This document shows, piece by piece, positions 12,205 through 55,962 of a stretch of 64,000 bases of DNA. Position 1 is the stretch's first letter. The number at the start of each line of letters is the position of its first letter. The notes beneath the pieces were generated by a model. It was not told the DNA's origin. It saw nothing but the letters and a program-made list of their open reading frames with translations, and searched no databases. The DNA comes from an uncultured delta proteobacterium (GTDB taxonomy: Bacteria; Myxococcota_A; Polyangia; Polyangiales; Polyangiaceae). The translations under genes were made by a program, and so were the position numbers. Location of the stretch: NCBI GenBank assembly GCA_963782055.1, contig CAWAIF010000003.1, forward strand, positions 2,912,001 through 2,976,000, read 5' to 3'.

Positions 12205-12343
12205 CCCCGCCCCCTGTCCCCCCTGTCCCCCTTTCTGTCCCGGGACACCAAACGTCGGAGTGCAAGCAGGCTGGCACTTCGACGTTTCAGCGGGAATCTG
12301 CGAGGGGGGTGGGGTGGCACGGGAGGTGCTCTGGATGGTGGGA
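12205..12343 (+). repeat. Dispersed hairpin/sigma54 module, copy 1
   Basis: (CCCCTGT)n tract, inverted repeat AAACGTCGGAGTGC/GCACTTCGACGTTT (12250-12287), GGGAATCT, then the sigma54 box; matches 53360-53498 (reverse strand) and in part 20205-20292. Confidence 0.85.
12315..12330 (+). promoter_or_regulatory. Sigma54 -24/-12 promoter for MarR copy 1
   Basis: TGGCACGGGAGGTGCT has the exact GG-N10-GC spacing and is conserved in copy 2. Confidence 0.7.
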
Positions 12344-12931
12344 ATGGACCCTGTGTTCTTCACCATCAAGCGGGCCTACTACGCGACGCTCAAGCTGACA
12401 CGGCGGGCGCTGGCGGCGATGGGGCTCACGGCAGCGCGGTACGACCTGCTCGACGCGCTCTACAAGCTCGGCACGCGCACCATCTCGCTTCAGAGCCAGC
12501 TCCGGCGCGCGATGGGCGTCGCCCGCTCCACCATCAGCCGCATGATGCGGTCGCTCGAGCAGCTGGGGCTCGTCACCCGGCGCCGCGACGGGCGCGACTG
12601 CATCGTCGCGCTCACCCCCGAAGGTCGGCGACGCGTGCGGCGCGCCCACTACGGGCTGGTGCTCGTGGGGCACGTCGGCCTCGCCCTGGACGGCGCGCTC
12701 GCGCCGGGAGAGCGCCGCTGGCCCGATGTCCGCGCGTGCAGGCGCGCGCGCAGGCACCTGGAAGCGCTGTGCATGCGCATCCGCCTCGGCTTCGGCGACG
12801 AGGCCGTCCTCGACAGGCGCACCGAGTACGGCTTCTGGGTCCTGCGGGCCGAGGAGCGCACCCGCCGCGCGCGCGCCCATCAGCAGCGCCGCGAGCTCGA
12901 GCTGGAGCGTGCGCGCACGGGCCTCGCCTAG
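12344..12931 (+). CDS. MarR-family winged-helix regulator, copy 1
   Basis: GLTAARYDLL...LQSQL...VARSTISRMMRSLEQLGLVTRRR...VALTPEG; close paralogue at 52763-53359. Confidence 0.88.
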   Translation: MDPVFFTIKRAYYATLKLTRRALAAMGLTAARYDLLDALYKLGTRTISLQSQLRRAMGVARSTISRMMRSLEQLGLVTRRRDGRDCIVALTPEGRRRVRRAHYGLVLVGHVGLALDGALAPGERRWPDVRACRRARRHLEALCMRIRLGFGDEAVLDRRTEYGFWVLRAEERTRRARAHQQRRELELERARTGLA

Positions 12932-19514: not shown

Positions 19515-19873
19515 GCACCCGCTCCGGAGCGTCTCCGCTCCCACACTCCGCCCGAGACCCAGGTGGGCCAACTTTTCTGCAATCGCAACGCGCCAGCCTG
19601 CGCGCCTGCGCAGGTAAGGCCATGACTATGGCCGTAGGGCAAGCGTAACGTCACTTCACATAAGGTCACTGTCCACTTGCACAGGTACGCCTGCGAGGAG
19701 CCCTCTTCAAGGGAAAAACGCGTGTATTTCGCACGTATCCACAATTTGTCCAGAGGGAGGCGCCTTGACAGGTGGCCAGCGGCGGCCATACGTGTGGCGA
19801 TGGGTGCGCCGCGTGCGGCGAGCCCCCGCCTGCCCCCGGCGGCCAAGGGGGCGCGAGGCGACCAAGCGACCCC

Positions 19874-20200
19874 ATGCCGACCTACGACTACGCCTGTAAG
19901 AGCTGCGGCCATCAGTGGGAGACGGTGCAGCGCATCTCGGCGGATCCGCTCACCGAGTGCCCCAAGTGCCACGCCCAGACCGCCCAGCGGCTGATCAGCG
20001 GGGGCAACTTCATCCTGAAGGGGGGCGGCTGGTACGCCGACCTCTACTCCTCGGCGAAGCCCGCATCCTCCGCCTCCGGCTCCGGCAAGGAGACGAAGAG
20101 CGAGTCCAAGGGGGAGAGCTCTTCGGGTTCGTCCTCCACCGCGCCGACCGCGCCGAGCGCGCCGGCTCCGGCGAAGAGCGGCTCGTCCCCGAAGGAGTGA
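19874..20200 (+). CDS. FmdB-family zinc-ribbon protein
   Basis: MPTYDYACxxC...CPKC...FILKGGGWYADLY with a Ser/Ala-rich tail. Confidence 0.9.
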   Translation: MPTYDYACKSCGHQWETVQRISADPLTECPKCHAQTAQRLISGGNFILKGGGWYADLYSSAKPASSASGSGKETKSESKGESSSGSSSTAPTAPSAPAPAKSGSSPKE

Positions 20201-20204
20201 GGGC

Positions 20205-20292
20205 CTTTCCCCCAAGATTCCCGGCGAAACGTCGGAGTGCGAGCATGCTAACACTCCGACGAACGGGGGGATGGGTCAGGGGGCGGGGGGGG
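20205..20292 (-). repeat. Dispersed hairpin module, orphan copy 3 (no sigma54 box, no MarR)
   Basis: CGTCGGAGTG/CACTCCGACG arms around AGCATGCT, flanking AGATTCCC and G-rich tract as in the other copies; lies between convergent genes. Confidence 0.8.
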
Positions 20293-27701: not shown

Positions 27702-27727
27702 CGTCGGACTGCGAGCGTGCTAGCAAT
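27702..27727. repeat. Degenerate hairpin-module copy (left arm + core)
   Basis: CGTCGGACTGC-G-AGCGTGCT-A-GCAAT between cmk and rpsA. Confidence 0.62.
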
Positions 27728-27806
27728 GGGGCGCGCGGGGCCCGCGGGGGCGGAGGACACTGCGCATCGGTGCAGGCGGGGGCGGCCCGCGGCTTGCCTT
27801 TGGCCT

Positions 27807-36409: not shown

Positions 36410-36537
36410 GGGCAATTGGCTGTAGTTAGCGCAATCTAGGGTCGGCCATCAGACTTTTCCGCCCCGCCGGGCCACCTTTTTGGCAGGGGCACGGCGTCCC
36501 CACCCGCCCCGCGGCACGGGCGTGCGCCGCCCGCGTG

Positions 36538-36557
36538 ATCGCGAGCATGCTCACGAT
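36538..36557. repeat. Core palindrome ATCGCGAGCATGCTCACGAT
   Basis: Same core, intergenic upstream of sucA. Confidence 0.7.
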
Positions 36558-36588
36558 TGGACGCGCCCGGCTGCCTCTGCCGCGAAGG

Positions 36589-52762: not shown

Positions 52763-53359
52763 TCAGCGCGCGGGCTCGTCCGTCGGGCACGCGCGGTCGA
52801 TCTCGCCGTGGTGGCGCTTCCGGGCGGCCTGCGCACGGCGCGCGCGCGCCTCTCCCCGCAAGAACCAGAACCCGCCGTAGGTGAGCCTGTCGAGCGTGGC
52901 CTCGTCGCCGAAGCCGAGCCGGATGCGCATGCAGAGCACCTCGAGGTGCCGGCGGGCGCGGGCGCACCGCCGCGCGTCGGGCCAGCGGCGTGCACCTGGG
53001 GCGAGCGCGCCGTCCAGCGCGAGCCCGACGTGTCCGACGAGCACCAGCCCGAAGAAGGCGCGACGGACGCGGCGGCGTCCCTCCGGCGTCAGCGCGACGA
53101 TGATGTCGCGCCCGTCGCGACGCCGCGTGACGAGCCCCAGCTGCTCGAGGGACCGCATCATGACGCTGATGGTGGAGCGCGCCACCCCGAGCCCGCGCCG
53201 AAGCTGGCTCTGAAGGTGCACGGCGCGTGTACCCAGACGATGAATCGCATCGAGCAGATCGTACCGCGCCGCCGTGAGCCCCATCGCCGCAAGCGCCCGC
53301 CGCGTCAGCCGCAGCGTCGCGTAGTAGGCCCGCTTGATCGAGAAGAACACAGGGTCCAT
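52763..53359 (-). CDS. MarR-family winged-helix regulator, copy 2
   Basis: 36 of the first 40 residues identical to copy 1; same wHTH and C-terminal extension. Confidence 0.88.
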   Translation of the reverse strand: MDPVFFSIKRAYYATLRLTRRALAAMGLTAARYDLLDAIHRLGTRAVHLQSQLRRGLGVARSTISVMMRSLEQLGLVTRRRDGRDIIVALTPEGRRRVRRAFFGLVLVGHVGLALDGALAPGARRWPDARRCARARRHLEVLCMRIRLGFGDEATLDRLTYGGFWFLRGEARARRAQAARKRHHGEIDRACPTDEPAR

Positions 53360-53498
53360 GGCATCCCCCACAGCACCCCCCGTGCCACCCCCCCTTCCCC
53401 CAGATTTCCCGCGAAACGTCGAATTGCGAGGATGCTAGCAATCCGACGTTGGGTGTCCGGGGACAGGGGGAGGGGACAGGGGGACAGGGGCGGGGGGG
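53360..53498 (-). repeat. Dispersed hairpin/sigma54 module, copy 2
   Basis: C-rich tract, hairpin 53415-53450, GGGAAATCT, and TGGCACGGGGGGTGCT (53387-53372) on the minus strand. Confidence 0.85.
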
Positions 53499-53566: not shown

Positions 53567-54532
53567 TCAGAGGCCGTACTTGGTCTTCAGATAGGTGTCG
53601 ATGGCGGTCATGTCGTTGTCGCTGAGCGTTCCCTTGACCGCCAGCTCCTCGGCGATATCGCCCTGGAGGTAGCCGCCCTGGAACCCGCGACTCCCGATGA
53701 AGACGATGGCGTTGGCGAGGGTGACGTCGGCCGCGGCGTTGTTGGACGTGTCCTTGGCTCCGTCCACCCAGACCTCGAGCGCCGTGCCGTTGCGGCGGAT
53801 GGCCCAGCGATGGGGCTTGCCGTCGTTGTTGGTCGTGCTGGCGCTGGTCACGGTGACGTTGCCGACGGTGCCGCCCACCGCCGCCACCGCGCCGCCACCG
53901 GTGGTGTTGCCGAAGAGCCCCAGGGTTGTCTGGCTGTTGTACGTGGCCCGGAAGTAGAAGTAGGTGGAGCCCGCGCCCTGACCCGTCGCCGGGTTGGTGT
54001 ACGAGCCGACCAGCGCCACGGCGAAATCGCCCGTGCCCCACTGCAGCGACTTGTCGTTGTTGTCCGCGATGGTCAGGTACTGGTGCTGCTGGTAGTTCTG
54101 GGGAGGCGTGAAGCGGATGACGGGCAGCCCGTTGATCCCCTTGGCCACGACGGTGGGCTGGTGCGACTGGTTGCCCTGACCGCCGGAGGCGTCGTTCTTG
54201 TGGCTGGTCTGGTCCGCCCACGCCGAGACGTTGTTGTTGTTCTGCGTGACGCCCTTGGCCGCATCGAGCCAGAGCACGAGGCCGCTGAGCTGGCTGGGGT
54301 CCCACGAGCCGGCGTCGCCCGTGTTGCCGGAGTCAGTGTTGCCGGAGTCCGCCACCCCCGAGTCGTCGGTGTTGCCGGAGTCGTCGCCCGTGCCGGTGTC
54401 GCTCGTCACGCCCGTGTCGGTCGCCACCCCCGTGTCGGTTCCGCCGCCGTCGACATCCACCGAGACGTCGTCCCCTCCGCAAGCCGCCGTGGTCAAGAGC
54501 GTCGCGGCGCCCCAAAGGATCCATGCACGCAT
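53567..54532 (-). CDS. LamG/concanavalin-like lipoprotein
   Basis: AGGAGG RBS, TAAC lipobox, DTG/DSG linker, LVLWLDA...WADQ...GDIAE...YLKTKYGL. Confidence 0.82.
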   Translation of the reverse strand: MRAWILWGAATLLTTAACGGDDVSVDVDGGGTDTGVATDTGVTSDTGTGDDSGNTDDSGVADSGNTDSGNTGDAGSWDPSQLSGLVLWLDAAKGVTQNNNNVSAWADQTSHKNDASGGQGNQSHQPTVVAKGINGLPVIRFTPPQNYQQHQYLTIADNNDKSLQWGTGDFAVALVGSYTNPATGQGAGSTYFYFRATYNSQTTLGLFGNTTGGGAVAAVGGTVGNVTVTSASTTNNDGKPHRWAIRRNGTALEVWVDGAKDTSNNAAADVTLANAIVFIGSRGFQGGYLQGDIAEELAVKGTLSDNDMTAIDTYLKTKYGL

Positions 54533-55940: not shown

Positions 55941-55962
55941 GATCGCGAGCATGCTAGCGATC
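55941..55962. repeat. Core palindrome GATCGC-G-AGCATGCT-A-GCGATC
   Basis: Same core, between divergent genes. Confidence 0.72.

Follow-up and report, generated by a model that had tools for sequence, protein, structure and literature searches.

The window examined here is a 64-kb stretch of a soil-type myxobacterial genome (G000; 7.58 Mb, 97% complete), and it contains two copies of a compact cassette encoding a protein with a MarR fold. Copy A lies on the plus strand and begins with an enhancer-like array of two TGTCC half-sites and one palindrome, TGTCC-NN-GGACA (positions 12214–12247), the likely site of a sigma54 activator. The array is followed by a 38-bp inverted repeat (12250–12287, without strand), the likely operator of the encoded protein, in which a 22-bp palindromic core (12258–12279) has a C next to the 2-bp spacer in each half. 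Next come a sigma54-type −24/−12 box of the form GG-N10-GC (TGGCAC-N6-TGCT; 12315–12330, plus strand) and, with its ATG 13 nt 3′ of the box, the gene for a winged-helix protein of 195 amino acids with Arg at residue 66 (12344–12931, plus strand; m26, subfamily I). In copy B, on the minus strand, the enhancer-like array (53454–53487), the palindrome (53415–53450, core 53422–53443), the sigma54-type box (53372–53387), and a gene for 198 amino acids (52763–53359; m27, also subfamily I) occur in the same order; the ATG lies 12 nt past the box, the palindrome has one C half and one G half, and residue 66 is Val. The whole ORFs share 79.7% nucleotide and 79% amino acid identity, and 36 of the first 40 residues, read from the translations, are common to both, as the original prediction for this DNA had stated. 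Both repeated stretches and the order of their elements were likewise confirmed when the coordinates were re-read in the window. What had been described as a C-rich tract is present but is in fact a specific motif, the TGTCC-NN-GGACA array, and the two conserved Cys residues of the C-terminal extension (Cys132 and Cys143) occur in 41/41 intact subfamily-I copies but not throughout the family. Elsewhere in G000, 13-nt pyrimidine-rich tandem repeats that resemble the C-rich tract, without a palindrome, occur at C3:2485313–2485529 and C3:5209004–5209067.

Both proteins exceeded the Pfam cut-offs for MarR_2 (44.3 and 40.9 bits for copies A and B; cut-off 27) and MarR (38.3 and 28.3 bits; cut-off 24.6). 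The top Foldseek matches of a structure model of the copy A-type protein (pLDDT 71.8) were all MarR proteins (best E-value 4.4e−6), and none of the specific NCBIfam families reached its cut-off. The homodimer prediction gave a score of 0.25, against a mark of 0.42, which weighs neither way. The inverted repeats of copies A and B each folded better than 200/200 shuffled sequences (z = −3.9 and −4.1), and an Rfam search over copy A and its flanks gave no match at E ≤ 0.1. Copy A begins 18 nt past the stop codon of a GH31 gene and converges with an FG-GAP gene across a 14-nt gap; copy B begins approximately 70 nt past a LamG-domain gene and converges with an AMP-binding gene across a 33-nt gap. 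The placement of each copy right after the stop of one unrelated gene and convergent with another was therefore as predicted, and so was the lack of a nearby transposase: no transposase family was found among the 44 window ORFs run against Pfam (11 + 33), a scan that left out about a dozen ORFs with the N-termini of housekeeping proteins. The LamG-domain gene beside copy B (53567–54460, minus strand) is itself missing at the corresponding junction of each of the five congeners that were searched; three of these have approximately 650 nt of other DNA there.

Copy number, distribution, and insertion sites

The two copies originally noticed are part of a much larger set, as a whole-genome count found 58 cassette loci in G000. 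They fall into five subfamilies (43 in I, 6 in II, 2 in III, 6 in IV, and 1 in V) with one layout: the TGTCC-NN-GGACA array, the 22-bp palindrome, the sigma54 box, and the MarR-fold gene 12–14 nt further on, with the end of the unit near the stop codon. Four of the 58 copies look damaged (two frameshifts, one lost stop, and one short copy), which may reflect assembly errors. According to codon-based gene calls made for this analysis, the cassettes sit between unrelated genes, and 27/58 occupy convergent gaps, against 10.8 expected (p = 3e−7). No regulated neighboring operon of the kind expected of MarR regulators was found, the neighbors being unrelated across the 58 loci; as regards the ligand or redox sensing also expected of such regulators, the Cys pair is confined to subfamily I. 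All six congeners carry 5–17 copies of their own, which are at most 47% identical to copy A. In a distribution scan at E ≤ 1e−20, with 30 candidates scored per genome, the cassette family was present in 12/72 other genomes of the same taxonomic family and in 0/48 from other families; with so limited an occurrence, it is dispensable. Relatives of the protein that carry names come from Polyangiaceae, Polyangiales, Myxococcales, or deltaproteobacterial MAGs, so that the host probably belongs to the Polyangiaceae. At 50% identity, 187 clusters scored E ≤ 1e−30, and their names, where given, say only MarR regulator. No relative was found on viral contigs, on plasmids, or, with a single-protein query, on metagenome contigs, and literature searches, which extended little to subscription papers and supplementary annotation tables, returned no account of the family or its regulon. 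Among 41 copies, with the two frameshifted ones excluded, dN/dS was approximately 0.22 over the first 160 alignment columns and 0.64 in the tail.

The original prediction had proposed a comparison with empty orthologous sites, and the junctions tested were indeed mostly empty in the congeners, which together with the 58 loci bears out the idea of a self-contained, spreading unit. The sucD and ndk genes, approximately 45 nt apart in G001, are separated in G000 by an inverted cassette. At the site of copy B, a family member was found in 0/5 congeners, and in G005 and G006 the two flanks adjoin directly; the relatives do not have the two neighbors of copy A side by side, and no listed copy adjoins either of them. 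Two further junction searches likewise yielded no adjoining flanks in relatives, and one DNA sequencing run (share 0.06) matched as short, scattered pieces that contained no junction. The gap between genes that we take to be hemN and relA measures 55–462 nt in 5/5 congeners versus about 1100 nt in G000, and the gap 5′ of a gene that is presumably dapA measures 21–39 nt in three congeners, about 300 nt in one, and 6 kb in one, with about 920 nt in G000. Other sites are old: five G000 copies share a neighbor (>50% identity) with one of 69 congener loci, and behind mglA, where G000 has a Lys-type copy, three congeners carry one of the Glu type.

In G000, the DNA that near-identical copies have in common starts at the enhancer and runs out close to the stop codon. 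In other genomes, the common DNA of near-identical pairs extended from the enhancer to stop +0/+1 in approximately 11 of the 20 pairs examined; one congener group had ragged tails of +1 to +81 past the stop, and one pair was identical only from the sigma54 box. No DNA past the stop codon is conserved in subfamily I. The target duplications that had been suggested as a trace of movement left no signal, as the longest word shared between junctions averaged 5.02, compared with 5.16 in mismatched pairs (n = 54), a comparison in which a duplication of 2–4 nt lies below detection; nor do the cassettes show the terminal inverted repeats and target duplication of a MITE or DDE-mobilized cassette. As for a co-occurring HUH or RAYT enzyme, RAYT (Y1_Tnp) gave 0 matches in the 97%-complete G000 (the control matched in 6/14), and the 20 Y2 transposase matches, with Y2_Tnp and Zn_Tnp_IS91 domains, are of the IS91 type, with 0/43 IS91-origin-like motifs within 1.5 kb of any cassette. 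Recombination was detected among 40 subfamily-I copies (PHI-type test, p = 0.001), and copies m15 and m58, whose flanks are unrelated, have ORFs that are 99.8% alike and enhancer zones that are 69% alike; gene conversion among the copies is evident. The best reading of these data is spread by a route in which no dedicated transposase is implicated, and a precise copying route would also agree with the sharp boundary that near-identical pairs show at the stop codon.

Promoter and enhancer of the cassettes

The GG-N10-GC box, which had been recognized as sigma54-type in the first two copies, is present in 58/58 G000 copies and in 83/90 loci of relatives. The first in-frame ATG lies 12–14 nt past the GC in 56/58 copies; usual sigma54 geometry puts such an ATG at about +2 to +4, and the predicted near-leaderless transcription would fit this spacing. 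The enhancer motif stands upstream of 57/58 copies in the same version as at the host's comM and radC. This placement agrees with that of sigma54 activator sites, which lie 80–150 bp upstream of the start. An enhancer role had at first been considered for the hairpin; the enhancer-like element is instead the TGTCC-NN-GGACA array, which is common to comM and radC. In its strict form, the array occurs 69 times in G000, 67 of them intergenic, and enhancer motif plus sigma54 box gave 70 sites (reversed control, 0), namely 54 cassettes and 16 others. The latter precede comM (followed by recA), radC, ssb, an XPB-like helicase gene, six Uma2 genes, a HEPN gene, two IS91-type transposase genes, and three unassigned loci. 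In the congeners, comM has a TGGCC-GGCCA variant (4/4 read), radC has similar repeats (5/5, with a strict match in 2), and most cassettes have the TGGCC-GGCCA variant too, so that the sequence of enhancer plus box changes together with the host's comM/radC version. A strict or relaxed enhancer motif was found within 220 nt of 58/90 loci of relatives, and an order-wide enhancer-plus-box pattern, whose spacer was set too short, missed the cassettes. The palindrome was absent at the other regulon members (comM, radC, Uma2, and IS91) in the sequences inspected. These comparisons make it probable that the cassettes share a candidate sigma54 enhancer regulon with comM-recA and radC in Polyangiaceae. 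The functions of the member genes suggest a DNA-stress or competence-like regulon; it is not the textbook competence regulon, because dprA lacks the enhancer motif and ssb has it in G000 only (absent in six congeners).

Several other loci under this enhancer deserve mention. At ssb (G000 C3:1344289–1344400), the enhancer and sigma54 box were gained or kept around a sigma70-like promoter. G000 has two recA genes (C3:143617–144747 and C3:986752–987783), and only the recA behind comM is under the enhancer. Two IS91-type elements (C3:4409731–4411452, plus strand; C3:5265299–5267020, minus strand) are 97.6% identical; the DNA that they share opens with this enhancer and sigma54 box and extends to an origin-like motif 140 nt beyond the stop. 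Ends of this origin-like kind number about 30 and are gathered in a few islands. Each of the six Uma2 genes (C3:6896789–6911203 and C3:1711916) has its own enhancer and sigma54 box, with the ATG about 13 nt past the box and without a purine-rich leader; five of them alternate with unrelated cargo genes and adjoin a WYL-WCX regulator gene and the HEPN gene, an arrangement that looks like a gene-capture island. A full enhancer and sigma54 box at C3:6428615 (minus strand) has no called ORF for approximately 600 nt and no Rfam match, and may drive a noncoding RNA of the regulon, and an 89-amino-acid protein encoded under the same enhancer and box (C3:966306–966575, minus strand) has no Pfam or NCBIfam family.

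Palindromes inside and outside the cassettes

The 22-bp core lies about 74 nt 5′ of the ATG, between the enhancer and the sigma54 box, and was found at a score of at least 17 in 128/148 units. In these 128 scored units, which include a few picks at odd distances and many close copies, residue 66 of the protein varied with the base beside the spacer: Glu or Gln occurred with G,G in 32/32 units and Arg or Lys with C,C in 86/88, the seven Val units were mixed, and one unit had Thr. With the prediction fixed beforehand, 30/33 held-out congener loci (30 Glu and 3 Arg, left from 44 fetched loci after one duplicate and 10 low scorers were dropped) were right, and the three misses were at odd distances. 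In a quick tree that omitted the helix and was read by eye, the acidic-GG combination occupies three or more separate positions, namely one clade of congeners, one clade from G000, and two isolated G000 copies, of which one has Gln. About 270 bp separate the helix codon from the palindrome, and inheritance or conversion affects both at once; because of this linkage, and because many units are near-identical, the independent switches are few (three or four). Contacts of Arg or Lys with guanine and of Glu with cytosine are the expected chemistry. Moreover, the inverted repeat would not be part of the mRNA, because it lies 5′ of the predicted start. The covariation supports the earlier suggestion of the hairpin as an operator, and the palindrome is probably the operator of the encoded MarR-fold protein rather than a transposon end. 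A role as a mobilization end, which had also been considered, finds no support: the hairpin is internal, no RAYT/Y1 transposase was found in the 97%-complete genome, no IS91-origin-like motif lies within 1.5 kb of a cassette, and no target duplication was seen.

Loose palindromes occur outside the cassettes as well. In the window, subfamily-I palindromes lie at 20235–20256, between convergent genes 8 kb from copy A, and at 27707–27728, between genes that we take from their N-termini to be cmk-like and rpsA-like; two of the general family type, at 36537–36558 and 55941–55962, are intergenic, the latter 2.6 kb from copy B. Genome-wide, the subfamily-I matrix found 41 sites outside cassettes at ≥17 bits, 39 of them intergenic (reversed control, 0), and two 10-position matrices found 133 loose sites at ≥15 bits (8 and 4 matches in the reversed C3 control). 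Loose sites showed no enrichment at promoters, the 19 tandem, 16 divergent, and 4 convergent locations being proportional to intergenic DNA. The E-type palindrome occurs 13–83 times in five E-dominated congeners and 0 times in G000 and G003, and the subfamily-I pattern 60 times in G000 and 0–4 times elsewhere; the type of loose site thus tracks the dominant subfamily of each genome. A relaxed Arg-type palindrome, which is a noisy pattern, gave 10–82 matches in carriers and 0–64 in noncarriers among 121 genomes. Loose-site flanks scored above the control in 15 and 7 of 39 cases, scores that include overlapping palindrome arms.

Within G000, 8/44 type-II loose sites lie within 10 kb of a subfamily-II copy (0.6 expected) and 13/54 type-I sites within 10 kb of a subfamily-I copy (5.4 expected), and no cross-type enrichment was found at the same distance. 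Type-II sites are mostly on C2 and both ends of C3, and type-I sites are mostly in mid-C3. The own-type clustering repeats in G004 (4/31; 0.56 expected) and G006 (2/11; 0.32 expected) and is not significant in G001 (2/35, with 50 of its 55 sites listed) or G005 (1/38). The 49 congener sites fetched included 38 that could be mapped, which fell on 31 places in G000; a G000-type site lies within 400 nt at 5/31 of these places (0.58 expected), four of them within 150 nt, and 9/31 are within 10 kb of a G000 cassette (4.8 expected; p = 0.04). An in-frame site present in G001 and G004 could be aligned with G000 free of indels and with almost the same peptide; the other spanning alignments were gappy. 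Loose sites were no more similar in sequence to the operator of the nearest cassette than to the average operator (0.08 ± 0.27), and no MarR remnant that would mark loose sites as decayed cassettes was found near two G001 site clusters and four other regions. We also considered loose sites as landing pads for cassettes and rejected the idea, as no congener-type operator was found at 11 empty-site regions, where the best scores were GC-rich look-alikes. Three loose palindromes with an exact 101-bp period share one divergent gap (G000 C3:4235048–4235250). The zinc-ribbon gene that follows smc has, in G001 and G006, a perfect Glu-type palindrome between its promoter and its start codon; the corresponding gene in G000 (window 19700–19874) has no palindrome there.

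Known systems, proposed mechanism, and alternatives

Many substitution-built sites, also inside genes, are known for SlmA/SBS, MatP/matS, and DNA uptake sequences, and the ssp genes of Bacillus are dispersed, coregulated, monocistronic genes for DNA-protecting proteins. In contrast to all of these, the gene here has multiplied together with its site, and subfamilies with different sites coexist, with the sites clustering near own-type genes. The cassettes resemble IS91 rolling-circle elements and mobile insertion cassettes in intergenic insertion without target duplication, and two IS91-type genes start at the same enhancer, but unlike IS91-family elements the cassettes have no origin motif, terminal repeats, or transposase. 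REP/REPIN-RAYT systems (PMC3184786) are similar in that a single resident protein family is matched by dozens of intergenic palindromes peculiar to the species; however, the partner here is a MarR-fold binder rather than an HUH nuclease, G000 has no RAYT, and base substitution within a gene gave rise to at least one loose site. SCO3205 of Streptomyces coelicolor is a MarR-family protein with a footprint of approximately 22 bp read by the recognition helix (PMC3737563). With such autoregulators (SCO3205; E. coli MarR-marO, PDB 5h3r; MftR, PDB 8ylg), the cassettes share the fold and a 22-bp pseudo-palindrome 5′ of their own gene, with bases read by the recognition helix, the binding being predicted here. 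They differ in being 58 dispersed solo copies without a regulated neighbor, in having a sigma54 promoter, an enhancer common to recombination genes, and an operator between enhancer and promoter, and in a 30–50-residue C-terminal extension of the protein, which has no NCBIfam family at the cut-off. By its fold and operator, the cassette protein is a member of the MarR family, and defining features of REP/RAYT, IS91-type, and MITE elements are missing.

We are inclined, by a modest degree, to regard the cassette product as a DNA binder that belongs to a recombination regulon, is expressed in pulses, limits itself, and acts locally. The sigma54 box of every copy and the enhancer motif of 57/58, in the genome's comM/radC version, suggest how expression might begin: under DNA stress or in a competence-like state, a host sigma54 activator would fire all copies together, and the mRNAs would be near-leaderless. 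A dimer would then read the 22-bp site between enhancer and promoter, block looping of the activator, and end the pulse, as the helix-base covariation would lead one to expect. Besides this self-shutoff at its own promoter, the protein would bind over 100 loose palindromes across the chromosome, a number that suggests that the family likely coats many chromosomal sites during DNA stress. The distribution of the loose sites indicates that they arise through base substitution and that some positions are kept between species, where they may be functional; their enrichment near own-type copies suggests that the protein works chiefly in the neighborhood of its gene, in which case selection would favor dispersal and dose. 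The insertion pattern is consistent with new copies entering gene-end gaps through rare, nonspecific recombination, after which they would be trimmed of flanks to their functional limits and homogenized or replaced by gene conversion. The purifying selection and the conserved loose sites point to a host function, at least in part. The original interpretation as a spreading regulatory or selfish cassette holds in part, with its selfish component made less certain by these two observations.

A selfish hitchhiker in the recombination regulon, like the Uma2 and IS91 genes with which it has a promoter in common, seems to us rather unlikely. During the activity of RecA, ComM, and RadC, its protein would bring its operator together with loose sites and so bias its own insertion and conversion; the loose sites would be by-products or decoys, and the host would gain little. 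The patchy distribution (12/72 genomes), the species-specific expansions, the 5–58 copies per genome, the preference for harmless convergent gaps (27/58 versus 10.8 expected), the replaced resident at the mglA site, and the proximity of congener sites to G000 cassettes (9/31 within 10 kb versus 4.8; p = 0.04) all agree with such a life. Yet the loose sites are no more similar to the nearest cassette operator than to the average one (0.08 ± 0.27), no indel accompanied the origin of the in-frame site, the type has switched at some positions that are preserved between species, no congener-type operator was found at the 11 empty-site regions, and the MarR fold has no catalytic center.

It is very improbable that the cassette is a nonautonomous transposable unit moved in trans by an HUH enzyme (a Y2 enzyme of the IS91 type or a RAYT since lost) that would recognize the hairpin or the TGTCC array as its end. 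The hairpin is internal and its center tracks the protein; no conserved DNA follows the stop in subfamily I, and the tails are ragged (+1 to +81) in one congener group, although approximately 11/20 near-identical pairs do share DNA from enhancer to stop +0/+1 and HUH elements typically leave no target duplication. The 20 Y2 matches in G000, two of whose IS91-type copies begin at the same enhancer motif, would supply an enzyme, but 0/43 origin-like motifs lie within 1.5 kb of a cassette, Y1/RAYT is absent, and the IS91 origins are confined to a few islands whereas the cassettes are genome-wide. We also think it quite improbable that the palindrome serves another protein, such as a DNA-bending factor for sigma54 looping, or an RNA or single-stranded DNA hairpin, with the MarR genes an ordinary paralogue expansion and the covariation a matter of linkage. 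Sites of bending factors do lie between enhancer and promoter, a stable hairpin is predicted, codon and site are linked, and the relaxed Arg-type pattern matches 0–64 times in genomes without the family. Against this, comM, radC, Uma2, and IS91 have no palindrome in the sequences inspected; the unlinked loose sites follow each genome's dominant subfamily, the pairing of Arg/Lys with guanine and Glu with cytosine is the expected chemistry, and the repeat is 5′ of the predicted start and hence outside the mRNA.

The pulse-expressed local binder could be part of something larger, although we hold this extension to be unlikely: the cassettes might form a distributed, locally acting chromosome-binding network in which each copy controls nearby sites while recombination is active, a change of one residue re-codes protein and sites together, competing subfamilies occupy different parts of the chromosome, and the gene, needing no transposase, steers host recombination so as to spread and overwrite its rivals. 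The family raises the questions of why a bacterium keeps dozens of near-identical regulator genes apart and of whether such a regulator acts mainly near its own gene. It offers a natural repeated experiment on how a protein and its site change together, with one residue, one base, and several origins, and it exposes in Polyangiaceae a probable sigma54 enhancer regulon of comM-recA and radC that selfish genes also use.
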